From positions 128,001 through 192,000 of the forward strand of contig JAVKIP010000001.1 of assembly GCA_031459385.1 (NCBI GenBank): 64,000 bases of DNA, in the 5' to 3' direction. Each line of letters starts with the position of its first letter. Position 1 is the first letter of the stretch. This DNA comes from Candidatus Fervidifonticultor secundus. Lineage in GTDB: Bacteria > Sysuimicrobiota > Sysuimicrobiia > Sysuimicrobiales > Humicultoraceae. The position numbers and the translations under genes are program-made. A model generated the notes under the pieces. That model did not search any database, was not told where the DNA came from, and saw only the letters and a list, made by a program, of their open reading frames with translations. Positions 18,739-32,280 of this stretch are shown here, piece after piece.

Positions 18739-18864
18739 CCTTCGCGTTCCCCGCGTAGTCCAGTCATCTGCTGCTTTACTGCCGGGTCGGGGTGCCCGGA
18801 GGTGTGCACCGGTTCCGGGCGTGTCCGGCCCCTGGTGCCGAGAGGACGCCGGAGGTGGCGTGCG

Positions 18865-19971
18865 ATGGAGAAGCGTCGTGACCTGCAGGTGCCTGTCGCC
18901 GGTGCCGACCCCTCGTGCTGCCCGCCGGACGATGCGGAGGTGGTCAGCGACGGCTTCATGCCGCGGCGCGCGTTCCTGGCCAGGCTGTCGCAGGTTGGGC
19001 TGGCCGCGGCCGGGTGGGCCTGGCTGGCCGACCGCCCCGCGGCGGCGCAGGGCCGGCGGCGCGTGCGGCTGGCGTTCTGCAGTCAACTGCTCTGCATCAT
19101 TCCCTACGAGGTCGCCCGGCGGCAGGGCTACTACGCAGAGGAGGGTCTCGATGTCGAGCTCGTGTACTTCCGGGGCGGCAGCGCGGCCATACAGGCGCTG
19201 GTGGGCGGCGCGGTCGAGTACGCAGCCACGTCGTTCGACGTGGTGCTGGCTGCGGCGAGCCGCGGCGCCGACGTGGTGCGCTTCTTCACCACGGGCCGGC
19301 TGCCGCTGTTCGCCCTGGCCGTCGCGCCGCACGCGGCAGAGGCGGTGCGCGGGCTGCCGGACCTGCGCGGGCGCACGGTCGGCGTCTCCGCGCTTGGCAA
19401 CGCTGACCACCTGCTGGCTGGCTACCTGCTCCAGCGCGCGGGCGTGCGGCCGACGGCGGTGCAGTTCGCCGTGCTCGGGCCCAACCTCTTCGAGGCGCTG
19501 CGCGCCGGGCACGTCGACGCCGGCATGGTGCAGGAGCCCGCGGCCACGCTGCTGGAGCAGCGTGGCGGGCGCGTGCTCGTCAACCTCATGGATCTGGCGC
19601 AGGCCCGGCGCTACCTGGGCGGGCCGTACGAGTTCATGGGGGTCGCCGTGCGCGCGCCCGAGTGGCAGGAGCGGCAGGCCGAGATGCGGGCGCTGGCGCG
19701 GGCGCTGGAGCGCGCGCTGCGGTTCATCCACTACGGCACGCCGCGGCTGGTGATCGACGCGCTGCCGGCCGAACTGATCGCGGGCGGCGACCGCGCGCTG
19801 CTGGAGCAGGTGCTGGCCCGGCACCGGCGGTCGCTCTACCCGCAGGATGGTCGCATCGACCTGGCCGCGGCGCGCCGGGTCGTCGCCGTGCAGCAGCAGG
19901 CCGGGGCGCCTGTAGCCGCAGACCTCGCGCGGCTGCTCAACCCGGCCATCGCGGGGGCGGCCAGCCCGTGA
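18865..19971 (+). CDS. NitT/TauT (sulfonate/taurine-type) ABC substrate-binding protein, Tat-exported
   Basis: ATG with GGAGG SD; PRRAFL twin-arginine motif; GYYAEEGLDVELV..RGG..AIQAL.GG.V and DLRGRTVGV. Confidence 0.85.
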   Translation: MEKRRDLQVPVAGADPSCCPPDDAEVVSDGFMPRRAFLARLSQVGLAAAGWAWLADRPAAAQGRRRVRLAFCSQLLCIIPYEVARRQGYYAEEGLDVELVYFRGGSAAIQALVGGAVEYAATSFDVVLAAASRGADVVRFFTTGRLPLFALAVAPHAAEAVRGLPDLRGRTVGVSALGNADHLLAGYLLQRAGVRPTAVQFAVLGPNLFEALRAGHVDAGMVQEPAATLLEQRGGRVLVNLMDLAQARRYLGGPYEFMGVAVRAPEWQERQAEMRALARALERALRFIHYGTPRLVIDALPAELIAGGDRALLEQVLARHRRSLYPQDGRIDLAAARRVVAVQQQAGAPVAADLARLLNPAIAGAASP

Positions 19972-20759
19972 TGGTCGGGGGCGTGGCGCTGGAGATCCGC
20001 GACCTGACCGTCGCCTACGGGCACCACGAGGTGCTGCGCGATTTGAACCTCGTGGTCCCCGAGGGACAGTTCGTGGGCCTGGTCGGTCCGTCGGGCTGCG
20101 GCAAGAGCACGCTGCTGCGGGCCGTGGCGGGGCTGGTCCCGCCGGCCCGCGGCACGCTGGCGGTGTTCGGGCGCGCGGTGACCGGGTGCGCCCCGGAGGT
20201 CGGCATGCTCTTCCAGGAAGACGCGTTGCTGCCGTGGCGCACCGCACGGGACAACGTGGCCCTCGGCCTGCGGTTTCGCGGGATGGCGGCGGGCGATGCT
20301 CGCGCCGCAGCGCGGGCCTGGCTCGAGCGCCTGGGACTGGGTGCGTTCGCTGACCACTTCCCGCACGAGCTCTCCGGCGGCATGAAGAAGCGCGTGGCGC
20401 TGGCCCAGGTGCTCGCGCCGCAGCCGCGCCTGCTGTTGATGGACGAGCCGTTCGCGAGCCTCGACGCCATCGTGCGGACGGTGCTGGAGGCGGAGTTCGC
20501 GCGGCTGGTGCGCGCCGAGGGCCTCACCGTCGTCCTGGTGACGCACGACCTGGAGGAGGCGCTGCTGCTCGCAGACCGCGTGGCCGTCCTCTCGGCCGGG
20601 CCGGCTGCGCGCATCCTGCGCGTCTACGACGTGCCGTTTCCGCACCCGCGAGACCCGGTGCACCTGCGCGGCGCGCCGGTCTTCGGCCGGCTGCTGGCGC
20701 GGCTCTGGGGCGACCTGCGCGCGGAAGTGGGCCGGATGGGCTGGGAGGTGCCGGCATGA
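19971..20759 (+). CDS. NitT/TauT ABC ATP-binding protein
   Basis: GPSGCGKST, LLPWRT, LSGGMKKR, LLMDEPF. Confidence 0.92.
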   Translation: MVGGVALEIRDLTVAYGHHEVLRDLNLVVPEGQFVGLVGPSGCGKSTLLRAVAGLVPPARGTLAVFGRAVTGCAPEVGMLFQEDALLPWRTARDNVALGLRFRGMAAGDARAAARAWLERLGLGAFADHFPHELSGGMKKRVALAQVLAPQPRLLLMDEPFASLDAIVRTVLEAEFARLVRAEGLTVVLVTHDLEEALLLADRVAVLSAGPAARILRVYDVPFPHPRDPVHLRGAPVFGRLLARLWGDLRAEVGRMGWEVPA

Positions 20760-21652
20760 GGCGCCTGGGCGCGCTCGTGGCGCTGCTGGCGGTGTGGGAA
20801 GCGGTCGTGCGGATGGGGTGGGTCAGCCCGCTGCTGGTCCCGCCGCCGGTCGTGGTGGCCCGCGTCGTCGCCGACCTCGTGCGGGGCGGTGCGCTGTGGG
20901 GGCACGTCGGTGCGACACTGCTGGAGGCGCTGGGCGGCCTGGGGCTGGGCGTCGCCGCGGGCGGGCTCCTCGGGCTGGCCGCGGGCCTGCTGCCGCCGGT
21001 CGCGGACCTGCTGCAGCCGGCCATGGCCGTGCTGAACGCCGTGCCGCGGGTGATCCTGGCGCCGCTGCTGGTGATCTGGTTCGGGATCGGCGTGGCGTCG
21101 AAGATCGCGCTGAGCTTCCTCCTCGTGGCCGTCACCGTGTTCTTCGCCGTGTACGGCGGCATCCGCGAAACCGACCCCCGGCTGGTGGAACGGGTGCGCA
21201 CGCTGGGGGGCGATGCGTGGGCCGTGGTGCGCGAGGTCTACGCCCCGTCGGTGGGCGCCTGGGTGGTGAGCAGCCTCAAGCTGGCCGTCGGCTTCGCGTT
21301 CACGGGCGCGGTCGTGGGCGAGTTCGTCGCGTCCAGCCGTGGCCTGGGCTACCTGCTGTCGTTTGCCCAGAGCACCTACAACGCGGCCCTCACCGTGGCG
21401 CTCATCGCGCTGGTGATGGCGGTGACCCTGACGCTGTTCGCGGGGCTGGAGCGCGGGGAGCGCCGGCTGCTCCGATGGAAGCACGGTGCGCGGCCTCGAC
21501 GCGCGCCAGGATCCCGCGCCGCGGCGCCCGTCTCGGCACGTGAGACGGTGCCCGCCCCCGCGTCCGGCGAAGGAGGAGCCCGCACGCAGCCCGAAGCCCC
21601 TGGAGGTTTTTCCGATCGGCCGCCCGCGACCCGGGCGCAGGAGGTGGGGTGA
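20756..21652 (+). CDS. NitT/TauT ABC permease
   Basis: PLLVIWFGIG, GAVVGEF...RGLG; low-complexity C-terminal tail. Confidence 0.88.
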   Translation: MRRLGALVALLAVWEAVVRMGWVSPLLVPPPVVVARVVADLVRGGALWGHVGATLLEALGGLGLGVAAGGLLGLAAGLLPPVADLLQPAMAVLNAVPRVILAPLLVIWFGIGVASKIALSFLLVAVTVFFAVYGGIRETDPRLVERVRTLGGDAWAVVREVYAPSVGAWVVSSLKLAVGFAFTGAVVGEFVASSRGLGYLLSFAQSTYNAALTVALIALVMAVTLTLFAGLERGERRLLRWKHGARPRRAPGSRAAAPVSARETVPAPASGEGGARTQPEAPGGFSDRPPATRAQEVG

Positions 21653-22921
21653 GTGGCGATGAATTTCCTGGTGCGCGTCAGGCGGGGGGCCCTGGCGGCA
21701 GTGGTGAGTGCGGCGCTCGTCGCCGGTCTGGGGACGTGGGGCGCCGCGCAGCAGCGGACGGCGCTGCGCTTCTGGATGTCCGCGGATCCTGCCCTGGAAC
21801 AGGCGATGGACGCACTGCTCCAGGGCTATATGCGGGCCAATCCGACCGTCACGGTCCAGCGCGACGCCTTCCCGTTCATCGAGTACCACCAGAAACTGAC
21901 CACCGCCTTCGCCGCAGGCGATCCGCCCGACGTCTTCTGGATGGACGTGCGCACGGCGGCGTTCGCGGCCCAGGGCAGCCTGCTGGTGCTCGAGCGCTTC
22001 ATCACGCCGCAGAACAAAGCCGACATCCTTGAGTCGGGGTTGATCGAGCCGGTCTGGAAGGGCAAGCTCTACGGCGTGCCGATGCACGAGCTCACCGAGG
22101 GCCTGTTCGTCAACCGGGCCATGCTCGAGGAGGCGGGCATCCGCATCCCGCAGCGGCTCAACGAGGCGTGGACCTGGGACGAGTTCGTCACCATCGCGCG
22201 GCGGCTCACGAAGCGGACCGGCGAGCGCACCGACGTCTGGGGCTTCGGCGTGCTCCGGCACCTGAGCGACTGGCCGATCCTGCCCATCATCTACCAGAAC
22301 AACGGCGCGGTGTTGAGTCCCGACCTGAAGAAGGCCACCGGCTACCTGAACAGCCCGGCCACCGTCGAGGCACTGCGCTGGTACCAGGAGCTGTTCACGC
22401 GGCACCGGGTCATCGCCTTCGATCCGATTCCCGAGGGCTTCCCCACCGGGAAGATCGCGATCTTCCAGGCGCCCAGCACCTACCGCGCGGTGCTGGACCG
22501 GCGCTACCCCGACTTCAAGTACGCGGTCATCCCCATGTTCCGCGGGAAGCGCTGCGCGGTGACGGCGGGCGGGTGGAACGTGTCGATCTCGGCGAAGACC
22601 AGGCATCCTGAGGTGGCCTGGTCGCTGGTGGACTGGCTCACCCGCGAGCGCCACCAGGAGTGGGTGCGGACCAGCGGGTACCTGCCCGTGCGCAAGTCCC
22701 TGGTGCAGCGGGACCCGCAGTTCCGGCAGTACCCGTGGAGCATCTTCATAGCGCAGCTCCAGGCGTGCCAGATCCACCGGCCGCACACGCCGGCATACAA
22801 CTTCTTCTTCGACACGTTCCTGGCCATCGCCAAGGACGTGGCGCTGGGCCGGGACGTGCAGAAGGTGCTGGACGACGCGGCGGCGCGTCTGGACGTGGCG
22901 CTGGCCCGCGGCGGCCGCTAG
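21653..22921 (+). CDS. Carbohydrate (CUT1) ABC substrate-binding protein
   Basis: Signal peptide, PPDVF, GKLYGVP, WTWDEF, GGW...I motifs. Start is GTG 21653 or ATG 21659. Confidence 0.88.
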   Translation: MAMNFLVRVRRGALAAVVSAALVAGLGTWGAAQQRTALRFWMSADPALEQAMDALLQGYMRANPTVTVQRDAFPFIEYHQKLTTAFAAGDPPDVFWMDVRTAAFAAQGSLLVLERFITPQNKADILESGLIEPVWKGKLYGVPMHELTEGLFVNRAMLEEAGIRIPQRLNEAWTWDEFVTIARRLTKRTGERTDVWGFGVLRHLSDWPILPIIYQNNGAVLSPDLKKATGYLNSPATVEALRWYQELFTRHRVIAFDPIPEGFPTGKIAIFQAPSTYRAVLDRRYPDFKYAVIPMFRGKRCAVTAGGWNVSISAKTRHPEVAWSLVDWLTRERHQEWVRTSGYLPVRKSLVQRDPQFRQYPWSIFIAQLQACQIHRPHTPAYNFFFDTFLAIAKDVALGRDVQKVLDDAAARLDVALARGGR

Positions 22922-22926
22922 CGCGC

Positions 22927-23859
22927 GTGACCTGGTCGGTGCGCCGGCGGGCGCCAGCGGCGCCCGGGGCGCGTCGGCCCCCGGGGGCGGGCCTGGCCCG
23001 CCAGCGGTACCGGGCCGCGGCGATCTTCCTGCTGCCCGCGACGGTGGGGATCGTGCTCTTTTCGCTCCTGCCGATCCTCCAGGCGCTGCGGCTGAGCCTC
23101 TTCGACTACTCGCTGCTCAGCCCAGAGCGGCTGTTCGTCGGGGGCGCCAACTACGCGCGGGCGGCGCAGGATCCCATCTTCCGCATCGCGCTGCGCAACA
23201 CGCTGGTCTACGCCGCGCTGCTCGTGGCGCTGCAGACGGTGGCCGCACTGGGGCTCGCGCTGCTCCTGAAGCGCCCGGTTCGGGGGCTGGCGTTCTTCCG
23301 CTCGGCGTTCTTCATCCCGGTGGTGACGTCGCTGGTGGTCATCAGCACGGTGTGGAAGCTGATGTACAACTCCCAGGGGGTCATCAACAGCGTGCTGGCG
23401 GCCCTGGGCCTGCCGCCGCAGCCGTTCCTGGCCAGCGCCGACCAGGCGCTGGCCAGCCTGGTGCTGATGAGCGTGTGGAAAGAGGTCGGCTTCTACATGC
23501 TCATCTTCCTGGCGGGGCTGCAGGCGATCCCCGGCGAGCTGTACGAGAGCGCGGCCATCGACGGGGCCACGGCCTGGCAGAGCTTCTGGCGGATCACGCT
23601 GCCGCTGCTGCGGCGCGCGGCGGTCTTCGTCGTCGTGGTCGGTACGATCTCGGCCTTCAAGGTGTTCACGCCGGTCTACCTGATGACCGACGGTGGACCG
23701 GCCGACAGCACCATGGTCATGGTGTTCTACATCTTCCGCACGGCCTTCCGGTACTTCGAGATGGGGTTCGCGGCGGCGATGTCGTTCGTGCTGCTGGTCG
23801 TCGTCCTGCTCCTGACCCTGGTGCAGTTCCGGCTGCTGCGCACCACGGTGGAGTACTGA
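22927..23859 (+). CDS. Carbohydrate ABC permease
   Basis: EAA loop LYESAAIDGA..WQ.FW.ITLPLL. Confidence 0.9.
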   Translation: MTWSVRRRAPAAPGARRPPGAGLARQRYRAAAIFLLPATVGIVLFSLLPILQALRLSLFDYSLLSPERLFVGGANYARAAQDPIFRIALRNTLVYAALLVALQTVAALGLALLLKRPVRGLAFFRSAFFIPVVTSLVVISTVWKLMYNSQGVINSVLAALGLPPQPFLASADQALASLVLMSVWKEVGFYMLIFLAGLQAIPGELYESAAIDGATAWQSFWRITLPLLRRAAVFVVVVGTISAFKVFTPVYLMTDGGPADSTMVMVFYIFRTAFRYFEMGFAAAMSFVLLVVVLLLTLVQFRLLRTTVEY

Positions 23860-23862
23860 GGG

Positions 23863-24786
23863 GTGCGGCGGGCGGAGCGCGGATCGCTGGCGGCGGCGCC
23901 CCCGGGAGCCGGGGCCCGGGCGGCGGGCTCGCCCTGGACCCTGGTGGGGCGCGGCGTGGGGCGGGTGAGCCTGTACCTGGCGCTCGGTGCCCTGGCCGCG
24001 GTCTTCCTGGTGCCGTACCTCTGGATGGCTGCGTCCTCGCTGCGCCCGCAGGCCGAGATCTTCCGGTACGTATCGCCGCTGTCGTGGCGGACGTTCGTGC
24101 CGGACGTGCTGACCCTCGACGCCTACCGCGAGCTGTTCCGGCTGGTGCCCTTTCCCTTCTCGCGCTACCTGCTCAACAGCGTGTTCGTGGCCACGACGGT
24201 CACCCTCCTGAGCCTGGTCGTCAACGCCATGGCCGCCTACGCCTTCGCCCGCCTGGCGTTCCCCGGGCGCGAGGTCCTCTTCGCGCTGTTCCTGAGCACG
24301 ATGATCGTGCCGTTCGAAGTGCTGGCCATTCCGCTCTACCTGCAGGTGCGCGCGCTGGGCTGGGTCAACACGTACCAGGCGCTGATCATCCCGTGGGTGG
24401 CCAACCCCCTGGGCATCTTCCTGCTGCGGCAGTTCTTCCAGGAGATCCCCCGGGAGCTGGAGGAGGCCGCCCGCATCGACGGGTGCTCGTACTACGGCGC
24501 GTTCCGGCACGTCGTGCTGCCCAACGCCGTTCCCGCCCTGGTCGCGTTCGCCCTGATCCGCTTCCAGGCCAGCTGGGACGCGTTCCTGTGGCCGCTGATC
24601 GCGGCGCCGGCGGCGGAGAAGCGGGTGATCCAGGTGGCGATCGCCAGCTTTGCCACCGAGGTGCAGACGCGCTGGGACCTGACGTTCGCGGCCAGCACGA
24701 TGGCCACCGTGCCCATCATCGTCGTCTTCCTGATCCTGCAGCGCTACTACGTGCAGGGGGTCGTGATGAGCGGGCTCAAGGGATGA
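23863..24786 (+). CDS. Carbohydrate ABC permease
   Basis: EAA loop ELEEAARIDG, WD.FLWPL. Confidence 0.9.
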   Translation: MRRAERGSLAAAPPGAGARAAGSPWTLVGRGVGRVSLYLALGALAAVFLVPYLWMAASSLRPQAEIFRYVSPLSWRTFVPDVLTLDAYRELFRLVPFPFSRYLLNSVFVATTVTLLSLVVNAMAAYAFARLAFPGREVLFALFLSTMIVPFEVLAIPLYLQVRALGWVNTYQALIIPWVANPLGIFLLRQFFQEIPRELEEAARIDGCSYYGAFRHVVLPNAVPALVAFALIRFQASWDAFLWPLIAAPAAEKRVIQVAIASFATEVQTRWDLTFAASTMATVPIIVVFLILQRYYVQGVVMSGLKG

Positions 24787-24904
24787 GGAGGACGCAGGTA
24801 CCGCGCGGGTGGCCGGCACGCGGCGGCCGGTGCGACGCGCCACCCTGGCGGATGCGGCACGCCAGCCTGTGGGCGTGCCGCGGCTTCGGACACTGGAGGA
24901 CGGG

Positions 24905-25990
24905 ATGAGCATGTACACCCACGACGCGATGCTCGCCGAGCTGCGCGCGATCGCCGCATCGGCCCGGCACGTGACGATCGACCGCGAGCAACTCGCCCGC
25001 GTGGCGGCGGTGCTGCGGGGCCGGCTGGGCGTCGACGACTTCCACATCCGCCGCGACTGTCCGTCGCTGGCGCCGGCGGAGGCGCTGCAGTTCTCCCTGG
25101 TGGCCGGGACCCACAACTTCCTCATCTGGCAGCGGACGTCCGGCGGCGGGGTCGAGCCCTGGCGCGCCTGCGTCGACGGCGAGGAGCGCTACGGGGCGCC
25201 GGCGATCTACGCCTGCCACCTGCGCGCCCTCCGCACGGGCCGGAACATCCTGGACGCGGACTACCTGGTGTCGATGACGCTGGCCGACATGGAGGACTAC
25301 TACCGCGACGAGCGCACCGGCGCGGTGACCCTGCAGTTCCTCCCACAGCGGCTGGCCAAGTTCCACGAGGTGGGCCGCGTGCTCCGCGAGCGCTACAGCG
25401 GCTCGTTCGTCACGCTGCTGGAGCGCGCCGAAGGCTGGCTGTTCCGGCCCGATGGCCAGGGGATCGCGCAGCGGCTCCTGGAGGACTTCCCGCTGTCGTA
25501 CGGCGACTGGCCGTTCTGCAAGCTGGTGATGGTCACCCTGGGCAACCTCTACGCCGACCGGGAGCACCTGGGGCCGGCGGGGACACCCGCCCGCGCGCTG
25601 GTGGACCTGCGGGACCCCGAGCACCTCGAGGTCGGGGCCGACTACTACCGACCGTTCTTCCTGTACCGGGTCGGCGTACTGCGGGTGAGCGAGGCGCTGC
25701 GGGCACGACTGCAGCAGCGGGTCCTGGTCGAGCGCGACAGCCCCATGGAGCGAGAATACCGCGCCTGGACGATCCTGGCAGCGCGGGAACTGGCCGAGCG
25801 CCTGGGCGTGCTGCCGCACGAACTGGCGAAGGAAACGTGGGCCATGGCCTTCATGCGCTGTCGGCCCTGTCACCCCGGGGTCGATCCGCAGGTGGTGCCG
25901 TGCGACTACCGGGAGACCTGCCACGCGTATACACGGGACCCGGCGCTCATGGACGCACTCTGGCCCCTGGTGCACACGCCGTGGTACTGA
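24905..25990 (+). CDS. Queuosine salvage family (DUF2419/Qng1-like) glycosylase paralogue A with C-terminal Cys cluster
   Basis: ATG with GGAGG SD; HVTID, NF.IW, ILDA.YL, EVGRVL.ERY.G, F.K, ADY, E.RA motifs in DUF2419 order; CRPC-x10-C-x5-C tail. Confidence 0.7.
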   Translation: MSMYTHDAMLAELRAIAASARHVTIDREQLARVAAVLRGRLGVDDFHIRRDCPSLAPAEALQFSLVAGTHNFLIWQRTSGGGVEPWRACVDGEERYGAPAIYACHLRALRTGRNILDADYLVSMTLADMEDYYRDERTGAVTLQFLPQRLAKFHEVGRVLRERYSGSFVTLLERAEGWLFRPDGQGIAQRLLEDFPLSYGDWPFCKLVMVTLGNLYADREHLGPAGTPARALVDLRDPEHLEVGADYYRPFFLYRVGVLRVSEALRARLQQRVLVERDSPMEREYRAWTILAARELAERLGVLPHELAKETWAMAFMRCRPCHPGVDPQVVPCDYRETCHAYTRDPALMDALWPLVHTPWY

Positions 25991-26009
25991 GCTGACCGGA
26001 GGAGGCCCC

Positions 26010-27113
26010 ATGCCGTATACCCACGAGGCGATGCGCCGCGAGATCGACGGCCTTGTCGGTTCCGCGGTCCACGTGACGATCGACGACGGCGCGGTGGCGG
26101 GCGTCGCCACCGTGATGCGCCAGCAGCTGGCCGCGGGCGGCGCGGCTTTCCAGACCGACCCCCAGCGGTACCCCGCCGAGTCGCCGGCCGAGAACACCCG
26201 TGATACGCTGCAGTTCTACCTGGTGCTGACCTCGCAGGAGTTCTGCATCTGGCGGCGCCGGACCGACGGTGCCGTCGAGGCCTGGGAGATCGAGATCGAT
26301 GGAGTGCGGTTCGTGGGCGCCCGCGGCATCGCCGCGGCACACATGCGCGCGCTGCGCCGGGGTCGGGACATCCTCGACGCCCGCTACCTGGCGGCGATGA
26401 CCCTCGACGATGTACGCGACTTCTACCGCGACGAGCGGACCGGCGAGGTCACCCTGCAGCTGCTGCCGCAGCGGCTGGCCAAGTTCAACGAATTGGGGCG
26501 GGTGCTGCTCGAGCGCTACGGCGGCCACGCGGCCAACCTGCTGGAGGCCGCCGGGGGGTATCTGTTCCGCGGCGACGACCAGGGGCTGATCCAGCGGCTG
26601 CTGCTGGACTTCCCCACGGCGTACTTCGACTGGCCGTTCTGCAAGCTGGCCATCCTCTACCCGAAGTTTCTGAGCACGCGGGCCACCGATGGGGTGCCGA
26701 CCACGGCGGAGTACCGGGCGCGGGCGCGCATCCACGACCCCGAGCACTTCGAGATCGCCGCCGACTACTACATCCCGCTGTTCTTCATCCGCACCGGGAT
26801 CTTCCGTGTCGACGACGAGCTAGCCAGGCGTCTGCGCGCGCAGCAACTCATCGAGCGCGACAGCCGCATGGAACGCGAGTACCGCGCGGCGACCATCGTG
26901 GCCGGTCGGCGGCTGGCCGAAGCCACCGGCGCCACGGTCAACGCCGTGGACACGGAGTGCTGGCGCATGGGCTACCTGGGGTGCCGACCGTGCCGGCTCG
27001 GCGTGAGCGACACCGAGCATCCGTGCGCCTACCGCGGCATCTCCCGCGCCTACCAGCAGGAACACGCGCTGATGGAGCTGCGGTGGCCGCTGGTGCTCAC
27101 CACGTGCTACTGA
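26010..27113 (+). CDS. Queuosine salvage family (DUF2419/Qng1-like) glycosylase paralogue B
   Basis: Clear paralogue of the upstream gene (shared YRDERTG.VTLQ.LPQRLAKF, DWPFCKL, ADYY, EREYRA, CRPC). Confidence 0.7.
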   Translation: MPYTHEAMRREIDGLVGSAVHVTIDDGAVAGVATVMRQQLAAGGAAFQTDPQRYPAESPAENTRDTLQFYLVLTSQEFCIWRRRTDGAVEAWEIEIDGVRFVGARGIAAAHMRALRRGRDILDARYLAAMTLDDVRDFYRDERTGEVTLQLLPQRLAKFNELGRVLLERYGGHAANLLEAAGGYLFRGDDQGLIQRLLLDFPTAYFDWPFCKLAILYPKFLSTRATDGVPTTAEYRARARIHDPEHFEIAADYYIPLFFIRTGIFRVDDELARRLRAQQLIERDSRMEREYRAATIVAGRRLAEATGATVNAVDTECWRMGYLGCRPCRLGVSDTEHPCAYRGISRAYQQEHALMELRWPLVLTTCY

Positions 27114-27190
27114 CGGTCCCCGGCGGCGGCCCGCGCGTCCGCGCCGCGCCGCCTGGCGCCGTCACTGCCGCGTGTTGAGGAGGACCCCGT

Positions 27191-28129
27191 GTGCGCGTGA
27201 TCATCGACACCGATCCAGGCATCGACGACACCGCGGCCATCTTCCTCGGGCTGGCGGCGGGGCTGCAGGTGGAGGCCGTCACCACGGTCTTCGGCAACAC
27301 GGACGTCGAGCACTGCACGCGCAACGCGCTCGTCGTCCTCGAAGCCGCTGGCCGCCCGGACATCCCCGTGCACCCCGGGGCGGCGGGGCCGTTGATTCGC
27401 GAGCCCACCTACGGAAGGGCGATTCACGGAGAGAACGGGCTCGGCGACATCGAGGTGCCGGCGCCGGCACAGGCGCCCGCCCCGGGAGGTGCCGTGGAGG
27501 CGATCATCCAGCGGGTCCTCCAGGCGCCCGGCGAGATCACGCTGCTCGCCCTGGGGCCGCTCACCAACGTCGCGCTGGCGCTGGCCGCCGAGCCCCGCCT
27601 GGCCCGCGCGGTGCGCCGCATCGTGGTCATGGGCGGCGCCGTGCTCACCTGGGGCAACGTCACGCCGGCCGCCTCCGCCAACCTCTACAACGACCCCGAG
27701 GCGGCGCGGCTCGTGTACCGGTCGGGCGCGCCGCTGGCGCAGGTGGGGCTCGACGTCTGCCGGCCGACGGTGATTCCCGCAGACCACCTGGCGCGGCTGC
27801 GGCAGGCGCCGCATCCCGCGGTCGGGCTGCTGCTGCGGGTCACCCCCTTCATCCAGGAGGCGTACCGCCGGCGGGGCATCGCGGCGGTGGCCGGCGGCGG
27901 CGTGCAGTACAACGACGTGGTCTGCATGGCCTACGCACTGCGCCCCGCCCTGTTCCGGACGCGACACCTCCCCGTGGACATCGAGACGCAGGGGGCGCTG
28001 ACGGCGGGTGCCACCGTGGCGGACTTCGACGGCCGGTGGGGGCGGCCCGCCAACGCCGACGTCGCCCTCGAGGTCGACGCCGCGGGCGTGGCCGACTTCT
28101 TCACGGAGACGCTGCTGGCCTGGCGGTAG
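27191..28129 (+). CDS. Nucleoside hydrolase (IUNH family)
   Basis: DTDPGIDD Ca-binding motif, HGENGLG, LGPLTNVALA, MGG, DPEAA. Confidence 0.92.
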   Translation: MRVIIDTDPGIDDTAAIFLGLAAGLQVEAVTTVFGNTDVEHCTRNALVVLEAAGRPDIPVHPGAAGPLIREPTYGRAIHGENGLGDIEVPAPAQAPAPGGAVEAIIQRVLQAPGEITLLALGPLTNVALALAAEPRLARAVRRIVVMGGAVLTWGNVTPAASANLYNDPEAARLVYRSGAPLAQVGLDVCRPTVIPADHLARLRQAPHPAVGLLLRVTPFIQEAYRRRGIAAVAGGGVQYNDVVCMAYALRPALFRTRHLPVDIETQGALTAGATVADFDGRWGRPANADVALEVDAAGVADFFTETLLAWR

Positions 28130-28157
28130 CGGCGCAGCGCACGAAGGAGGTGCAGCC

Positions 28158-28955
28158 GTGCGACTGGCGGGGAAGGTGGCGGTCATCACCGGGGGCGCGC
28201 AGGGTATCGGGCTGGCGATCGCCAGGCGGTTTGGGGCCGAAGGTGCGGCGGTCGTCGTCGCTGATATCGACGAGGCGCGTGGTGCGGCGGCGGCCGCGTC
28301 GCTGCGCGACCGGGGAACGCAGGCGGTGTTCGAGCCCACCGACGTGTCGGACGCCGGGCAGGTCGCCCGGCTCTTCGCCCGCGCGGCGGAGACGTTGGGC
28401 AGGGTGGACGTGTTGGTGAACAACGCAGGCCTGGTCCACGGCCCCGCGGTCGAGCGCCACTTCCTCGACACCGACGAGGCGACCTGGGACCGCGTGATGG
28501 CCGTGAACCTCAAGGGCGTCTACCTCTGCTCCTGGCACGCCGCCCGCTACATGGTGGCCCGCCGCGCCGGCTGCATCATCAGCATGAGTTCGTGCGGCGC
28601 CACGCGTGCTCACCGCCACCGGGTGGCCTATGACGCGGCGAAGGGCGCGATCGAGGCCGCCACCCGCGCCATGGCCCTCGACCTGGCCCCGTGGGGCATC
28701 CGCGTGAACGCCATCGCGCCGGGCGCGATCGCCGTGGAACGCCGCAGCCCGGTGGGCGAGGAAGGGCAGGTGGCCGTCGGCGACGTCATCCCGCTGGCGC
28801 GTCTGGGCACGGGCGACGATGTGGCAGGCGCTGCGGTCTACCTGGCCTCCGACGACGCCGCCTACCTGACGGGGGTCGTCATTACCGTCGACGGGGGTCT
28901 GTCAGCGCAGCTGCGGTCGCCGGCGGTCGACGTCAAGGTCGCGGTGGCCGGGTAG
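28158..28955 (+). CDS. Short-chain dehydrogenase/reductase
   Basis: GTG start with AAGGAGG SD; TGGAQGIG, NNAG, YDAAK. Confidence 0.92.
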   Translation: MRLAGKVAVITGGAQGIGLAIARRFGAEGAAVVVADIDEARGAAAAASLRDRGTQAVFEPTDVSDAGQVARLFARAAETLGRVDVLVNNAGLVHGPAVERHFLDTDEATWDRVMAVNLKGVYLCSWHAARYMVARRAGCIISMSSCGATRAHRHRVAYDAAKGAIEAATRAMALDLAPWGIRVNAIAPGAIAVERRSPVGEEGQVAVGDVIPLARLGTGDDVAGAAVYLASDDAAYLTGVVITVDGGLSAQLRSPAVDVKVAVAG

Positions 28956-28971
28956 GGGCCCGCACCATCGG

Positions 28972-30132
28972 TCACTCGTGCGGTGCGGGGTCGATCTGCG
29001 TGGGCACAGCCCCTCCGATGGCGACGTGACCCCTTCGCATCGACGTGGAGTTTCGTTGCTCCGCATGGTTTCGGATGAGGGCCAGGGTGCGGTAGACGGC
29101 GTGGATGAACTTGCCGTGGGCTGCCGTCACGTACAGCGCCGCGACGAAACCGAGGTGAACCGCAAGGGTCATCCCCATCAGGACCGTCTCCCGCAGGGAG
29201 AGCGTCAGCATCCCCGTCACGTTGGTCATCCCGAGGATGGACAGGAACAGGTAGTCGCTGGCGATCGATGCGCGAGCCGACGGCTCCTGGTCGCTCCCAC
29301 GCTTTGCGTGCCAGAGGCCCACGCATCCCGCGATCATGGCCAGGCCGCCGACCGTTCCCAGGACGACCGGGAGGCTCAGGAGCGGGTAGGGAGGCAACCG
29401 TCCCAGCAGCTCTTGATAGATGGCTGCGGATGTCGTGGAGGCGAAAGCGGCGATGAACCCGTAGAAGACCAGACCGTGGAAGACGCGACGGCTGTGGGAT
29501 GGACGCTCGGTTGGATAGGGGCAACCACCCCCGCCCCCGCGCAGCCATCGCATGCGCAGGACGTCCCAGGCGGCTAACGCGAGGTCGCGCGCACGCACGG
29601 GGATGGCAGCGGAACCGGATTCGCGCCAGAACTGGACGCCGGCGATACCCCAGATGCCCAGCCAGTAGCCCCCGAGGCCCAGGCCTACCGCGAGCATGAC
29701 CCAGTGCGGGATGACCCGGTAGAAGGCCCCCGGACCCGTGTGGACCATGAACAACCGGGGGCCTGCGATCCACGCCGCCAGAGCCGTGACGATGAGCATC
29801 ACTCCAGCCACGGCGCCGACGGCGGCTTTGGCATCACGGTAGAGAAAACGCATGAATCCTGGCCAGGTATGCGCCTGGTAGGTTTCGCCCCGCACGTCGG
29901 CCAGGACCCGCGGGATGTTCACCGCAAACTCATGGGGCGGAGCATACATGCAGGCGTAGTAGCAAGCGCGGCAGTCGTGACAGAGGCTGGCGAGGTAGAC
30001 GATGTCACCATCCGCAACGGCGCGGCGGAGTTCCAGCGCAGGAAAGACCGCGCAGAAGCCCTCGCAGTACCTGCAGGCGTTGCAGATCGTCAGCTGGCGC
30101 TGGGCGTCTTGTAGTACCTCAGCGCGTCGCAT
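28972..30132 (-). CDS. tcuB: TcuB-like 4Fe-4S membrane protein
   Basis: CNACRYCEGFCAVF, CHDCRACYYAC.YAPPHEF, RWL.GGG.GC, GKF.H. Confidence 0.9.
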   Translation of the reverse strand: MRRAEVLQDAQRQLTICNACRYCEGFCAVFPALELRRAVADGDIVYLASLCHDCRACYYACMYAPPHEFAVNIPRVLADVRGETYQAHTWPGFMRFLYRDAKAAVGAVAGVMLIVTALAAWIAGPRLFMVHTGPGAFYRVIPHWVMLAVGLGLGGYWLGIWGIAGVQFWRESGSAAIPVRARDLALAAWDVLRMRWLRGGGGGCPYPTERPSHSRRVFHGLVFYGFIAAFASTTSAAIYQELLGRLPPYPLLSLPVVLGTVGGLAMIAGCVGLWHAKRGSDQEPSARASIASDYLFLSILGMTNVTGMLTLSLRETVLMGMTLAVHLGFVAALYVTAAHGKFIHAVYRTLALIRNHAEQRNSTSMRRGHVAIGGAVPTQIDPAPHE

Positions 30133-31522
30133 GCCTGACCGCTTCCGTACCGGCTATGCGTCCAAACACCGTCCCGATGGTCATACCGATGCCCGCGAGG
30201 TACCCACGGGTGAGGATGTTGCCTGCCATGATCTCGCCGGCTGCGTAGAGATTTCGAAAGGGGGTGCCGTCCTTTTGCAGGACGCGCGCGCAAGCGTCGG
30301 CGGCGACACCCAGGTACGTGAACGTGATGCCCGGGCGCGTGGGAAAGGCGTGGAACGGCGGGTGTTCGATCGGTAGCGCCCAGTTGCTCTTGGGCGGGTG
30401 GAGGCCGCGTGTGCTCGCTCCGTCGAGGACGTCGGGTTGGATGTGCGTGTTGTGGCGGGTCGCCTGGTTGAACTCCTCGACGGTCCGCACGAACTCCATG
30501 CGGTCGAGGCCAAACTGCGCGTCGAGCTGACCGGCGAGGTCGACGAGTGATCGGGCTGTCAGCGGGGGAAACATCGGGGGAATGAAGCCGTCGATGGTGC
30601 GTGCGTCGAGTACCGCAAACGCGATCTGGCCCGGCTGCTGGGCGATGAGCCTGCCCCAGATCGCGTACCGCTTCGGCCACAGGTCCTCGCCCTCGTCGTA
30701 GAAGCGCCTGCCGAGGCGGTTGACGACGATGCCCAGGGGAATCGCGTCGACCCGCGTGGCAATGCCGCCGTCGTACTTGGGAGCGCGGGCGTCCACGGCG
30801 ACGCCATGGAACTCGCGAGGATCTCCCACGGCGAGGGCGCCCTTGCCGAGCAGGAGGTGCAGCAGTGTCCCGTCGTTGTACGGTGTGCCGCGCACGATGA
30901 AGTTCCTGGCCGCCGGCCCCCAGTGGTCCGAGAGCCAGTCCAGGTTGGCCTCGAAGCCACCGGCGGCGATCACGGCAGCCTTGCCACGGATCACTCCCCC
31001 GTCGGCGGTGACCACACCCTCCAGGTGCGGACCGTCCAGGAGCAGGTCGACGACGCCGGTGTCGTAGAGGACGTCCACGCCCAGGCGCGCGATGCGGTCG
31101 TAGTAGGCGTTGAGGAGAGCTTTGCCGCCGCCCAGGAAGAAGAGGTTCGTGCGACTCAGCGCGAGGGTGCCGGCGATCGGTGCCTGCCACCTGGCACCGC
31201 GTGCCGCCATCCAGTGCGGTACGTCTCTGGACGCCTGTACCAGCAACCGGGTCAGGTCGTGGTTGAGCGGGGTGCCAGTGACACCGATCAGGTCCTCCAG
31301 AAACTCGGCCTCCGTGTACACGCCCGTCATGTAGGAGACCTGGGCATCGTGGGCGCAGCGCAGATTGCGCGTGTGACGGCTGTTCCCGCCCCGCATGTGC
31401 TGGGGGGCGCGTTCCAGGACGATGACCCTGGCACCCTGCTCCCGGGCCGCAAGGGCCGCACAGAGGGCTGCATTGCCGCCGCCGACGACGATGACGTCGT
31501 ACTCGGACGAGGCGCGCGACAC
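30119..31522 (-). CDS. tcuA: TcuA/CobZ-like FAD-dependent dehydrogenase
   Basis: GGGNAALCAA, RGGNSRHTRN.RC.H, LSRTN.FFLGGGKAL, WPKRYAIWG, GITFTYLG. Probable GTG start at 31522. Confidence 0.9.
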   Translation of the reverse strand: MSRASSEYDVIVVGGGNAALCAALAAREQGARVIVLERAPQHMRGGNSRHTRNLRCAHDAQVSYMTGVYTEAEFLEDLIGVTGTPLNHDLTRLLVQASRDVPHWMAARGARWQAPIAGTLALSRTNLFFLGGGKALLNAYYDRIARLGVDVLYDTGVVDLLLDGPHLEGVVTADGGVIRGKAAVIAAGGFEANLDWLSDHWGPAARNFIVRGTPYNDGTLLHLLLGKGALAVGDPREFHGVAVDARAPKYDGGIATRVDAIPLGIVVNRLGRRFYDEGEDLWPKRYAIWGRLIAQQPGQIAFAVLDARTIDGFIPPMFPPLTARSLVDLAGQLDAQFGLDRMEFVRTVEEFNQATRHNTHIQPDVLDGASTRGLHPPKSNWALPIEHPPFHAFPTRPGITFTYLGVAADACARVLQKDGTPFRNLYAAGEIMAGNILTRGYLAGIGMTIGTVFGRIAGTEAVRHATR

Positions 31523-31524
31523 CG

Positions 31525-32190
31525 TCAGGCGCCCGTGCTGGCTGTGGCTGCAGCTCCTCGGTTCATGCGCATGCGTATCATGTGCGCCCGGGCCATGTGT
31601 TGGTGCGCGATGTGGGCGGCGCGTTCCGCGTCGCCCCGCTTGATGGCGTCCAGGAGCTCGCGGTGTTCCCCCAGCGCCTCTTCCGCCCGACCGGGATAGG
31701 TGAGCGTCGTGCCCTGCCGGCGCGCGATCAGGAGCCGGATTCTGTCGAGCTGCCGCGCCAAGTAGCGGTTGCGGGACGCTCGCCAGATGACGGCGTGGAA
31801 CTCGGCGTTCAACCGGGCCAGCGTCGCGACGTCGCCGTCGCGAAAACTCTGCTCCATCTCGCGGGAGAGTTCTTCGAGCAGATACAACTCGGCGCTCGTG
31901 ACCGAGCCAGCTGCGAGCCGTGCTGCGAGGCTTTCCAGGGCCTCGCGGATGACGCACAACTCCGACAGCTCGTCGTAGGGTGGCTCACGCACGATCACCC
32001 CGCGGCGCGGCCCGGTCGCCACGAGACCCTCCGCCTGCAGGCGTCGCAACGCCTCCCGCACGGGTGTTCGGCTCACCTTGAGCTCGGTGGCGATCGTCTC
32101 TTCGCGCAACGGGTCGCCCGGCGCGAAGACGCCCCGACGCATGGCATCCATTAGCCAATCATACACTCTGTCCACGACCGAGGCGTTCAT
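31525..32190 (-). CDS. GntR family (FCD) transcriptional regulator
   Basis: VSRTPVREALRRLQAEGLV HTH; FH..I...SRN and EH..LL.AI FCD motifs. Confidence 0.92.
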   Translation of the reverse strand: MNASVVDRVYDWLMDAMRRGVFAPGDPLREETIATELKVSRTPVREALRRLQAEGLVATGPRRGVIVREPPYDELSELCVIREALESLAARLAAGSVTSAELYLLEELSREMEQSFRDGDVATLARLNAEFHAVIWRASRNRYLARQLDRIRLLIARRQGTTLTYPGRAEEALGEHRELLDAIKRGDAERAAHIAHQHMARAHMIRMRMNRGAAATASTGA

Positions 32191-32280
32191 GGTGACATCA
32201 GGGCTCCCACGTATCGTGGCGATCCGGTTCACCGCCTGGCCGGCACGTCGTTGGGGCATTCGCCCGGATCGTCACACCCG

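Follow-up and report, generated by a model that had tools for sequence, protein, structure and literature searches.

The window, the 64,000-nucleotide stretch of DNA analysed here, carries an operon in which a sugar-type ABC importer is followed by two tandem Qng1-like paralogues, A and B, an IUNH-family nucleoside hydrolase and a short-chain dehydrogenase/reductase (SDR). On balance, though by no great measure, this is probably an uptake-linked operon that dismantles a nucleoside-like N-riboside other than queuosine, with the Qng1-fold proteins A and B and the IUNH protein acting as N-glycosidases.

In the proposed mechanism, the importer would take up the N-riboside, and two kinds of N-glycosidase, the Ca-type IUNH and the Qng1-fold A/B pair, would act on the compound or its relatives inside the cell. 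A and B would use the Qng1 machinery that they have kept for holding the ribose and breaking the C1'-N bond. A Cys-rich insert is the probable site of a metal, zinc or iron-sulfur, and probably anchors the C-terminal tail, with which Qng1 closes its active site. The enzymes are probably dimeric, as A2 or B2 where there is a single gene and possibly as AB in the source genome, while the SDR probably oxidises the freed sugar or sugar-like part.

Gene content and order

The source bacterium is an inhabitant of hot springs. The open reading frames lie where the earlier note had placed them, and the genes run in one orientation as it had described, on the + strand, in the order binding protein, two permeases, two Q_salvage genes, IUNH and SDR (Table 1). 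The start of permease 1 is placed near 22918, alignments of its relatives beginning at residue 9-26 of its translation. Paralogue A, in ORF 24809-25990, likely starts at the ATG downstream of GGAGGA, and the SDR, in ORF 28008-28955, at the GTG downstream of GAAGGAGG.

Table 1. Coordinates of the operon genes and of the adjoining upstream ABC system within the window.
Feature	Coordinates	Strand	Assignment
NMT1/THI5-like binding protein	18802..19971	+	Pfam NMT1, 82 bits
ABC ATPase, NitT/TauT-type	19662..20759	+	Pfam ABC_tran 112 bits, residues 125-265
Permease, NitT/TauT-type	20756..21652	+	Pfam BPD_transp_1, 73 bits
Sugar-type (CUT1-like) solute-binding protein	21653..22921	+	Pfam SBP_bac_1, 116 bits
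ABC permease 1 (UgpA/MalF-like)	22918..23859	+	Inside ORF 22660-23859; BPD_transp_1, 45 bits
ABC permease 2 (UgpE/MalG-like)	23863..24786	+	BPD_transp_1, 75 bits; NCBIfam
Qng1-like paralogue A, 361 aa	24905..25990	+	Q_salvage 72.5 bits; putative N-glycosidase, Cys4 insert
Qng1-like paralogue B, 367 aa	26010..27113	+	Q_salvage 86.9 bits; putative N-glycosidase
IUNH-family nucleoside hydrolase, RihA/RihC-like	27191..28129	+	IU_nuc_hydro 296.5 bits
Short-chain dehydrogenase/reductase (SDR)	28158..28955	+	adh_short_C2, 216 bits

In NCBIfam, permease 1 gives UgpA-like and GlcT-like matches below cut-off, and the SDR falls in the glucose 1-dehydrogenase subfamily (239.6 bits, cut-off 215). The IUNH translation carries the canonical DTDPGIDD at its N-terminus; its matches to RihC (248 bits) and RihA (227 bits) both lie under the equivalog cut-offs, and RihA is also its nearest solved structure (E 4.8e-56). 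The nearest solved relatives of the binding protein have oligosaccharides or glycerol-3-phosphate as ligands (best E 8e-22). That these relatives are not nucleoside binders was counted against the N-riboside reading.

Directly upstream lies a NitT/TauT-type ABC system, the stop codon of its permease being immediately 5' of the sugar-type binding-protein gene. The true start of its ATPase is probably downstream of the listed ORF start. All NCBIfam matches of this system are below cut-off: weak SsuA/taurine matches for the NMT1/THI5-like protein, nitrate, taurine and sulfonate types as the best matches of the ATPase, and TauC/SsuC-like matches for the permease. The NMT1/THI5-like gene is kept in locus L019, and the upstream ATPase and permease also in L001; a search of L002 found none of the NitT/TauT-type genes. 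The system abuts the operon in the source genus only, and whether it is part of the operon is uncertain.

Family, fold and clade of the paralogues

The assignment of A and B to the DUF2419/Qng1 family, made earlier from motifs, holds on the Q_salvage HMM (PF10343, Pfam cut-off 25 bits), on sequence matches to solved Qng1 (E 2.9e-11 for A, 2.3e-16 for B) and on predicted fold. The motifs themselves, FCKLVM, FCKLAI and ADYY, are present in the translations and align with F-Y-K199 and A-D231-Y232 of solved Qng1. The AlphaFold model of A is poor (pLDDT 69.9), with Qng1 7u07 as top fold match (E 5e-13, TM 0.50/0.55); that of B has a pLDDT of 92.9 and a pTM of 0.91, and Foldseek matches it to 7uk3 (E 1.6e-17, TM 0.76/0.86). 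The paralogues are 50% identical to each other across 365 residues (E 4e-115). Their clade is monophyletic and small, comprising 22 of 2301 Q_salvage family representatives, and within it both clade A (7 rows, SH-aLRT 100) and clade B (27 rows, SH-aLRT 99) are recovered. A and B are a real, undescribed variant of Qng1-like putative N-glycosidases.

Active-site residues

Qng1 is a queuosine-5'-monophosphate N-glycosylase/hydrolase that prefers a 5'-phosphate substrate, and the source that gives the roles of the side-chain, base and phosphate pocket residues names as the family's only characterised members enzymes that free queuine (PMC9881137). A and B keep the HhH Lys K199, the nucleophile D231, Y232, E267, the stacking W302 and the C-terminal Tyr of Qng1 (in B: Lys212, Asp252-Tyr253, Glu288, Trp318 and the C-terminal Tyr), and the ribose-holding Lys, Tyr and C-terminal Tyr are invariant across the clade alignment.

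The remainder of the site is different. At the Qng1 signature positions D69, N72, F75, Y93, W94, D298 and W302, paralogue A has G, N, I, A, P, A, W and paralogue B has T, E, I, A, R, D, W; the canonical D-N-F-Y-W-D-W occurs in 0 of 80 clade sequences, nor does any of the 80 have Asp at the D69 position. At D207, paralogue A has N and paralogue B has F. The side-chain pocket and proton relay of Qng1 (W48, H53, D69, Y93, W94, D207, W299) are replaced throughout, and in place of the phosphate residues R80, K233 and Q306 paralogue A has P, Y, F and paralogue B has A, Y, Y. Since the pockets for the base and the 5'-substituent are thus rebuilt, the substrate would not be queuosine. The modified-nucleoside proposal of the earlier note survives in part: the context fits the import and dismantling of a nucleoside-like compound, but queuosine as its substrate is not supported by the pocket residues. 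We infer a ribosyl substrate from the Lys, the Asp, the Tyr and the C-terminal Tyr that remain, in a site where both substrate pockets are rebuilt. The base-reading positions also differ between A and B (at D298, paralogue A has Ala and B has Asp; at N72, A has Asn and B has Glu), which does not readily agree with one shared substrate for A and B behind the same transporter.

The Cys-rich insert and the A-B complex

Unlike Qng1, the clade has an extra Cys-rich insert of ~40 residues before the C-terminus, as well as a YRDE(R)TG insert. Of the 80 clade sequences, 79 carry C325, C328 and C339. The fourth Cys occupies position 345 in 34/80 and 366 instead in 40/80; two sequences, within the 34, have both. 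In paralogue B, three cysteines lie in the insert and the fourth is the penultimate residue. This pattern of near-invariant cysteines with a fourth at either of two positions suggests a metal site. The 6/80 sequences with Cys at neither 345 nor 366 were counted against the metal-site reading.

The A-B complex model scores 0.82, the best of three controls 0.00; 116 of 157 solved complexes and 2 of 215 mismatched pairs reach this mark, counts that apply only roughly here because the alignments were made for this analysis. Contact agreement between the model runs is at least 88% and partner pLDDT at least 91. The interface is pseudo-symmetric, with equal residues on either chain, and these residues are kept in A-only and B-only lineages, the B proteins of twin and single-copy genomes being alike. 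Because of this symmetry and conservation in single-copy orthologues, a homodimer fits equally well. The heterodimer suggested earlier thus passes the modelling controls, but the interface may be that of a homodimer. Both the metal site and the dimer are proposed from the sequence pattern and a single model.

Conservation of the module and wider gene context

The gene cluster is conserved: its order of genes is found again in other genomes and metagenomes, so that the arrangement is not due to chance. Binding-protein orthologues with 77-93% identity head an equivalent module in eight metagenome loci. The orthologous transporter is followed by A alone (L036-L038), B alone (L002-L004, L023, L024, L033) or A then B (L001, L019, L021, L025, L031); of the latter loci, L001, L019 and L021 have a binding-protein match and L025 a fragment, while L031 is too short to include the transporter. 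Where the transporter precedes B in L023, L024 and L033, A in L036-L038, or A then B, its binding protein is 77-82% identical. IUNH usually comes next, and it follows immediately in the window, L001, L002, L019, L021, L022, L023, L028, L029, L035-L040 and L061. The SDR is kept in L001, L002, L019 and L023.

The wider context was counted over 34 Pfam-annotated loci, which are not independent, some lineages having contributed several of them. Neighbours are binding-protein ABC parts (28/34), IUNH, PfkB or FGGY kinases and Amidohydro_1 (7/34 each), Nuc_deoxyrib_tr-like proteins (4/34), ADP-ribosylglycohydrolase and SIS proteins (3/34 each), and also PNP, a LOG-like SLOG protein and transketolase. 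The genes next to more distant clade members include kinases, deaminase-type amidohydrolases and further N-glycosidase families. Despite the preference of Qng1 for a 5'-phosphate, the operon has no kinase, which was counted against the N-riboside reading; PfkB genes are located elsewhere in the genome.

Alternative explanations

The operon could instead serve a dedicated salvage of 7-deazaguanine nucleosides (queuosine, or the ribosides of preQ0, preQ1 and archaeosine), in which A and B, with or without the IUNH protein, would free the base and feed it to queF, tgt and queA in a host unable to make preQ0. The genome has tgt, queA and a queF adjoining a Vut_1 transporter gene, whereas queC and PTPS/queD were searched for and not found at 97.6% completeness; among 11 other clade-bearing genomes, tgt is present in 10, queF in 7 and a full-length queC in 1. 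B moreover keeps the equivalents of D298 and W302, which read and stack a guanine-like ring. The input of the bacterial queuosine route is preQ0 or preQ1, not queuine, and a genome on this route (tgt, queA, queF) counts against queuosine as the substrate. Queuine is released both by the characterised Qng1 members (PMC9881137) and by QueK, an IUNH-type enzyme of Clostridioides difficile (PMC11130926; PMC9881137). Nevertheless, such a salvage seems unlikely, as the side-chain pocket and proton relay are lost from both proteins and D298 also from A, a base transporter already adjoins queF, and the wider clade context is catabolic (deaminase-type amidohydrolases, transketolase, aldehyde dehydrogenase, CoA-transferases). 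The queC gap is background rather than a correlate, because it is phylum-wide (one weak match in 94 genomes), the clade being present in only 8 of the 94.

It is also rather improbable that the Qng1 fold now serves to split another glycosidic bond, in an imported non-nucleoside glycoconjugate such as a glycosylamine, an ADP-ribose-derived compound or a sugar-amino-acid adduct. This would suit the oligosaccharide-type transporter, the rebuilding of base and phosphate pockets alike, and the surroundings of more distant clade members, whose neighbours include peptide/opine-type binding proteins (SBP_bac_5 in 15/34 loci), RpiR regulators, ADP-ribosylglycohydrolase, SIS-domain proteins, amidase and M20 peptidase. 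However, an IUNH with its canonical motif is a constant neighbour in the sub-clades of the window, Nuc_deoxyrib_tr-like, PNP and nucleobase-deaminase-type genes recur close by, and the ribose-holding residues do not vary. That one of the two paralogues is a non-catalytic partner, with a regulatory or scaffolding role in an obligate AB heterodimer comparable to eukaryotic TGT (QTRT1/QTRT2), would agree with the complex model, the recurring A-then-B order and the missing base-reading Asp of A. We consider it very unlikely, as A and B alike keep the Lys, Asp-Tyr, Glu and C-terminal Tyr, each is found alone behind the orthologous transporter elsewhere, and the interface residues differ neither between the two chains nor between twin and single-copy B.

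Comparison with known systems

The reference structures of Qng1 are those from Sphaerobacter thermophilus (7U07/7UK3) and human (7UGK), with which A and B have the Pfam family and fold in common. Their Q_salvage scores of 72-87 bits compare with 178-354 for the ten ordinary-scoring members among 13 scanned. Unlike Qng1, A and B are located in ABC-importer operons as tandem copies, and they are predicted to form a dimer, whereas Qng1 has been described as a metal-independent monomer. Like QueK, the operon brings in the IUNH family, here paired with a Q_salvage gene, so that both folds known to release queuine are combined; yet the IUNH of the window has the general ribonucleoside hydrolases RihA and RihC as its nearest relatives, and it is compared with QueK here at the level of the family.

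Routes combining a kinase and a glycosidase are PsuK/PsuG for pseudouridine and, for queuosine, the conversion to Q-5'MP and then to queuine. PfkB/FGGY kinases adjoining distant clade members (L007, L010, L012, L013, L030, L034, L058) fit such a sequence of phosphorylation and cleavage, but the operon in the window has no kinase and its paralogues have not kept the Qng1 phosphate pocket. Finally, the iron-sulfur HhH-GPD DNA glycosylases endonuclease III and MutY resemble the clade in the catalytic Asp and in a Cys4 motif near the C-terminus, and the Glu of B at the N72 position can be set beside MutY, whose general acid is a Glu. However, their fold match is weak and distant (E 0.01-0.5, TM ~0.4), their loop spacing is C-x6-C-x2-C-x5-C as opposed to C-x2-C-x10-C-x5-C here, the operon has no DNA-repair context, and the closest relatives of A and B act on free nucleotides.

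Organization of the operon

The region around the operon has a G+C content of approximately 70–74%, and ten co-oriented genes were identified on its plus strand by ORF calling and by Pfam and NCBIfam matches. They are listed in the table. The gene content and order that the earlier note had described, i.e., a sugar-type binding protein, two permeases, two tandem paralogs (here A and B, 50% identical to each other), a nucleoside hydrolase (IUNH) and a short-chain dehydrogenase/reductase (SDR), were confirmed as written by the ORFs, the Pfam matches and the co-orientation.

Table. Genes of the operon and of the adjoining transport system (window positions)
Feature	Position	Strand	Remark
NMT1-like binding protein, NitT/TauT-type ABC system	18802-19971	+	
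ATPase, NitT/TauT-type ABC system	19662-20759	+	ORF
Permease, NitT/TauT-type ABC system	20756-21652	+	
SBP_bac_1 binding protein	21653-22921	+	No gap after the upstream permease
MalF/MalG-like permease 1	about 22918-23859	+	
MalF/MalG-like permease 2	23863-24786	+	
Q_salvage paralog A	24905-25990	+	
Q_salvage paralog B	26010-27113	+	
IUNH hydrolase	27191-28129	+	
SDR	28158-28955	+	

With an SBP_bac_1 binding protein and two MalF/MalG-like permeases, the transport genes have the Pfam and NCBIfam make-up of a CUT1-type sugar ABC importer. A CUT1-type ATPase was not found within the operon, the adjacent ATPase being of the nitrate/taurine type. CUT1 systems often share an ATPase encoded elsewhere. 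The IUNH gene product matches PF01156 with 296.5 bits and carries the N-terminal aspartate cluster DxDxxxDD (DTDPGIDD, residues 6–13). Its best NCBIfam models are RihA and RihC, both scoring under their equivalog cut-offs.

Shine–Dalgarno-like GGAGG runs are present upstream of A, B, IUNH and SDR. A signal scan of the operon found no promoter-like sites and three terminator-like sites, compared to 2.6 expected; the 77 bases that separate B from IUNH can form a GC-rich hairpin, which does not do better than shuffled sequences (z -0.57). No RNA datasets were listed as matching the operon, and the DNA matches are hot-spring metagenomes, possibly the source of the window itself.

Both flanks hold genes of other types. 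Upstream, the NMT1/THI5-like NitT/TauT-type system (18802-21652) stops one base before the sugar-type binding-protein gene; this neighborhood is kept within the genus (in locus L019 and partly in L001), not in other genera. Downstream, genes for a TcuB-like 4Fe-4S membrane protein, a TcuA-like FAD protein and a GntR/FCD regulator (28972-32259, minus strand) converge on the end of the operon. The TcuB-like protein matches TIGR02484 with 378 bits, over its cut-off, and the three genes look like another unit, of the tricarballylate type.

Family and fold of A and B

The Q_salvage (PF10343) model matches A with 72.5 bits and B with 86.9 bits, at a cut-off of 25. These scores are low for the family, as 10 of the 13 members scanned reach 178–354 bits. 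By sequence, the only solved relatives are Qng1 from Sphaerobacter thermophilus and human QNG1; the solved Qng1 is matched by B with E 2e-16, by A with E 3e-11 and by a profile of the clade to which both belong with E 1e-31. The AlphaFold model of B (pLDDT 92.9, pTM 0.91) has Qng1 (7uk3) as its top fold match, with E 1.6e-17 and TM 0.76/0.86. The model of A is poor (pLDDT 69.9, from an alignment of only 7 sequences), and its first fold match is still Qng1 (7u07; E 5e-13, TM 0.50/0.55). The DUF2419/Qng1 membership that had been read from the sequence motifs thus held in both the HMM and the structure comparison, and the assignment of A and B to the Qng1 family is right. A search of the ESM Atlas returned Q_salvage clusters only.

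A and B retain the catalytic core, but not the queuosine pockets

In the published description (PMC9881137), D231 is the nucleophile of Qng1, and the ribose is held by K199, Y232, F75 and the carboxylate of the C-terminal Y323, the C-terminal tail closing the active site. The base is sandwiched by I203 and W302, and D298 reads its guanine-like edge. W48, H53, Y93, W94 and W299 form the cyclopentenediol pocket, a proton relay of D69, N72 and D207 starts at the side-chain amine, and the 5′-phosphate is held by R80, K233 and Q306 (same source). Qng1 loses its activity when it is tagged at the C-terminus.

To compare these residues, pairwise HMMER alignments were used together with a MAFFT alignment that includes canonical family members. 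They were preferred because both match the F-x-K motif, the aliphatic residue at +4 and the L-Y motif, and because they agree mutually; a profile alignment to the solved Qng1, in which the Lys region was off by 7 residues, was discarded. K199, D231, Y232, E267, W302 and the C-terminal Tyr are retained in both A and B. In the numbering of B, K212, D252, Y253 and Y367, which align with K199, D231, Y232 and Y323, are invariant in a 22-row alignment of the clade.

Other positions have changed. F75 is replaced by Ile and H316 by Pro in both paralogs. D69 has become Gly in A and Thr in B, N72 is kept in A and is Glu in B, and D207 is replaced by Asn and Phe, respectively. Y93 and W94 correspond to Ala and Pro in A and to Ala and Arg in B, W299 to Lys and Thr; D298 is Ala in A and remains Asp in B. 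For R80, K233 and Q306, A has Pro, Tyr and Phe, and B has Ala, Tyr and Tyr. Consequently, neither the combined side-chain pocket and proton relay (W48, H53, D69, N72, Y93, W94, D207, W299) nor the 5′-phosphate pocket is preserved as a set in A or B. A seven-position signature that reads D-N-F-Y-W-D-W in three of the four canonical sequences checked (S-N-F-Y-W-D-W in the fourth) occurs in none of 80 clade sequences, and none of the 80 has Asp at the position of D69. Judged from this residue pattern in the alignments, A and B keep the bond-breaking core, with the queuosine-specific and phosphate pockets rebuilt.

A clade with a cysteine-bearing insert

A profile search of 1.84 billion representative sequences retrieved 2301 family members at E values up to 0.001. 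Among the best 150 of these, 22 score at least 241 bits, and the next match has 169 bits. The full-length sequences among the 22 align to the end of the profile, compared to about profile position 308–321 for ordinary members, which are approximately 313–350 residues long; the difference is accounted for by an insert of about 40 residues ahead of the conserved C-terminal tail. No fused forms of the clade were found among proteins of 644–2000 residues, a range in which long proteins crowd the candidate list. The long family representatives with GNAT, methyltransferase or MFS fusions are of ordinary Qng1 types, not of the Cys-insert clade.

Three cysteines of the insert (C325, C328 and C339 in B numbering) are present in 79 of the 80 clade sequences, many of which are close relatives. 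A fourth is located at 345 in 34 of them, as in A, or instead at the penultimate residue 366 in 40, as in B; two sequences, counted within the 34, have both and six have neither. The pattern suggests a metal site with four ligands, since such a site would be expected to leave its fourth ligand at either of two places that exclude each other; it would link the insert with the C-terminal tail.

In a quick IQ-TREE phylogeny of 69 rows, with SH-aLRT support only and with 25 close B-type relatives left out for speed, the Cys-insert sequences form one group apart from nine canonical sequences (SH-aLRT 99). Within it, clade A (7 rows, SH-aLRT 100), clade B (27 rows, SH-aLRT 99) and a third clade in which His replaces the stacking Trp (10 rows, SH-aLRT 99) are separated, and a fourth contains loci L010 and L013. 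A is 62% identical to a protein from Chloroflexota (Ardenticatenaceae) and B is 60–61% identical to another protein of that same genome. As each has its own counterpart in one genome, the sequences indicate that A and B are old separate lineages, not a recent tandem duplication. Tandem Cys-insert pairs are also found in a distant sub-clade with 36–43% identity to A and B (L046:2976-5228, L047:2-1893, L049:3217-5471), which makes pairing a recurring habit of the clade. Behind the pairs of L046 and L049 come genes for an ABC system of the peptide/opine type and for an aldehyde dehydrogenase.

Predicted association of A and B

The possibility of a heterodimeric enzyme had been raised from the sequence. 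The modeled A-B complex scores 0.82 (0.82, 0.84 and 0.82 in separate runs), compared to 0.00 for the best of three controls. Of 157 solved complexes, 116 attain the 0.82 mark, as do 2 of 215 mismatched pairs; these frequencies apply only roughly here because the alignments were our own. At least 88% of contacts are shared between the runs, with a partner pLDDT of at least 91. The model supports, without showing it, that A binds B.

In the model, the interface is pseudo-symmetric, with residue n of A corresponding to residue n+6 of B, and it uses B residues 151–164, 199–208 (just ahead of the catalytic Lys), 280–285 and 363. These positions are largely alike in clades A and B, and are the same in B proteins from genomes with twins and from those with a single copy. 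Modeling therefore argues for a dimeric clade. Specificity for AB over A2 or B2 is not established by it, because the interface is common to A and B and because near relatives of a real partner pass this complex test as well. Moreover, a heterodimer would not be obligatory, as single-copy lineages exist. Of the heterodimer proposal, the association thus stood up to the controls, and the exclusive pairing of A with B did not gain support.

Gene context in other genomes

The gene cluster is not confined to the window but recurs as a module across loci of other genomes and metagenomes. Within the genus, the full order of AI-2E transporter, NMT1 system, binding protein, two permeases, A, B, IUNH and SDR is found (L019 of genome G012; L001). 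A followed by B is also present in L021, L025 (69% and 71% identity) and L031 (56% and 61%). In L021 (2899-4001), the A-type copy matches in two pieces meeting at 3354-3357, which may reflect a frameshift or a sequencing error of the metagenome contig. Elsewhere the permeases are followed by B alone (L002, L003, L004, L023, L024, L026, L027, L032, L033) or by A alone (L035-L039). IUNH is located directly downstream in the window and in L001, L002, L019, L021, L022, L023, L028, L029, L035-L040 and L061, and SDR occurs as well in L001, L002, L019, L023 and L028. In one genus, a metallo-beta-lactamase-fold gene that is absent from the window lies between IUNH and SDR (L002:6768-7502, L023:9078-9812). 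The binding proteins of the A-only loci L036-L038 are 77% identical to that of the window, and those of the B-only loci L023, L024 and L033 77–82%. Because orthologous binding proteins precede A-only, B-only and A-B arrangements, one orthologous importer is served by A, B or both, usually with IUNH.

The wider context was surveyed with Pfam in 34 clade loci, in sets of 10 and 24, which are not independent samples. Near-duplicates (L035, L037-L040, L044, L061, L065), short contigs and L057, which has the same neighbors as L012 and L058, were left out before the second set was annotated. Binding-protein ABC parts are present in 28 of the 34 loci (SBP_bac_1 in 10, SBP_bac_5 in 15, SBP_bac_3 in one); L025 and L026 have permeases only, and L004 and L050 additionally have SBP_bac_5 on the other strand. 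IUNH, PfkB or FGGY kinases, and Amidohydro_1 proteins each occur in seven loci, Nuc_deoxyrib_tr-like proteins in four, and ADP-ribosylglycohydrolases, SIS proteins and xylose-isomerase-like TIM barrels each in three (the last in L007, L029 and L034). PNP, an IF-2B-type isomerase, a LOG-like SLOG protein and transketolase were each found once. With kinases, enzymes of the base-deaminase type and four or five further families of N-glycosidases recurring nearby, the context speaks for N-ribosides being taken up and dismantled.

A single locus gathers many of these functions. L029:3155-12855 holds, in one direction, three Nuc_deoxyrib_tr-like genes, an amidohydrolase, a PNP-family gene, a Qng1-like gene and IUNH, together with two xylose-isomerase-like TIM barrels and a split transketolase, and looks like a complete nucleoside-to-pentose-phosphate island.

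Candidate substrates

The earlier note had proposed queuosine, or another modified nucleoside, as the substrate. Queuosine is unsupported by the residues, as its side-chain and phosphate pockets are replaced in A and B, and by the genomic controls. In the window's own genome (97.6% complete, 5.5% contamination), A and B are the only Q_salvage genes. The tgt/que gene check that had been suggested identified tgt (two matches), queA and queF, and found no queC, no PTPS/queD and no clear queG. From the presence of the former three and the absence of queC and PTPS/queD, the organism looks like a preQ0 salvager using the bacterial preQ1 route, not like a queuine user. Its queF adjoins a gene for a Vut_1 (QPTR-type) transporter (genome G000, contig C56:128795-129650). 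Both tgt matches are full length, with 484 and 481 bits (C2:66150-67211 and C29:12667-13731 of G000), and, given the estimated contamination, this is either a true duplication or due to a contaminating contig. Among 11 other clade-bearing genomes, tgt is present in 10, queF in seven and a full queC in one. The absence of queC was considered as evidence for queuosine salvage and rejected: in the 94 genomes of the phylum, all of one order, queC is represented by one weak partial match, and the clade occurs in just eight genomes, all of one family. The lack of queC throughout the phylum removes its correlation with the clade. With queC missing from 93 of the 94 genomes, this small, single-order phylum appears to depend on imported preQ0.

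A combined reading, in which A and B are a metal-bearing, dimeric class of the Qng1 fold that frees 7-deazaguanine bases for the salvage of queuosine precursors, is regarded as improbable. According to it, the metal would be iron-sulfur or zinc, its site would pin the C-terminal tail as a lid of the active site, and the fourth ligand would have moved between two positions during evolution. A and B would free a preQ0- or preQ1-type base from imported nucleosides of archaeal tRNA or modified DNA, and this base would supply queF, tgt and queA in a hot-spring phylum unable to make preQ0. If true, this would be a nucleoside-level salvage route for queuosine precursors, of which none is known today. 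Besides nucleosides, the loci with SBP_bac_5, which add genes for CoA-transferase, enoyl-CoA hydratase, amidase and M20 peptidase, leave room for non-nucleoside substrates in these sub-clades.

Comparison with known systems

Iron-sulfur proteins of the HhH-GPD type, i.e., EndoIII and MutY, match the model of B only weakly at best (E 0.014–0.5, TM 0.35–0.42). The cysteine spacing of the clade, C-x2-C-x10-C-x5-C, is not that of the Cys4 loop of EndoIII and MutY.

In a limited literature search, no publication was found on Qng1 homologs that are paralogous, bear cysteines or are linked to ABC genes, and none that connects Qng1 with iron-sulfur; two papers on DUF2419 and 4Fe-4S look unrelated by their titles and abstracts. 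A survey of the gene neighborhoods of Qng1, QueK and TGT identified 51 families of transporters, without testing the ABC candidates of PF00005 (PMC11130926). PF00528, PF01547, PF13416 and PF01156 were not found in a part of its supplement, whose Table S2, on transporter families beside Qng1 genes, may still list this ABC type. Taken together, sequences and models indicate that A and B are an undescribed, importer-linked variant of the Qng1 fold, probably metal-bearing and probably dimeric.

Knowing the substrate of the clade would reveal what else the Qng1 fold cleaves and would extend, by one step, the scavenging of nucleosides by microbes of hot springs and soils. It would also put right the automatic annotation of these genes, which are currently labeled ‘queuosine salvage family protein’. 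The alternative places of the fourth Cys offer a natural experiment on a putative metal site holding the lid of the active site. Qng1 is so far known as a single-purpose enzyme for one micronutrient. It is described as metal independent and reported to be monomeric, and some of its crystal forms contain two monomers in the asymmetric unit (PMC9881137). In contrast, the Cys pattern of A and B suggests a metal site and their model suggests a dimer; their clade combines the bond-breaking core of Qng1 with new pockets and, probably, with a metal site and an interface for dimerization, and is tied to importers and other N-glycosidases in several phyla.
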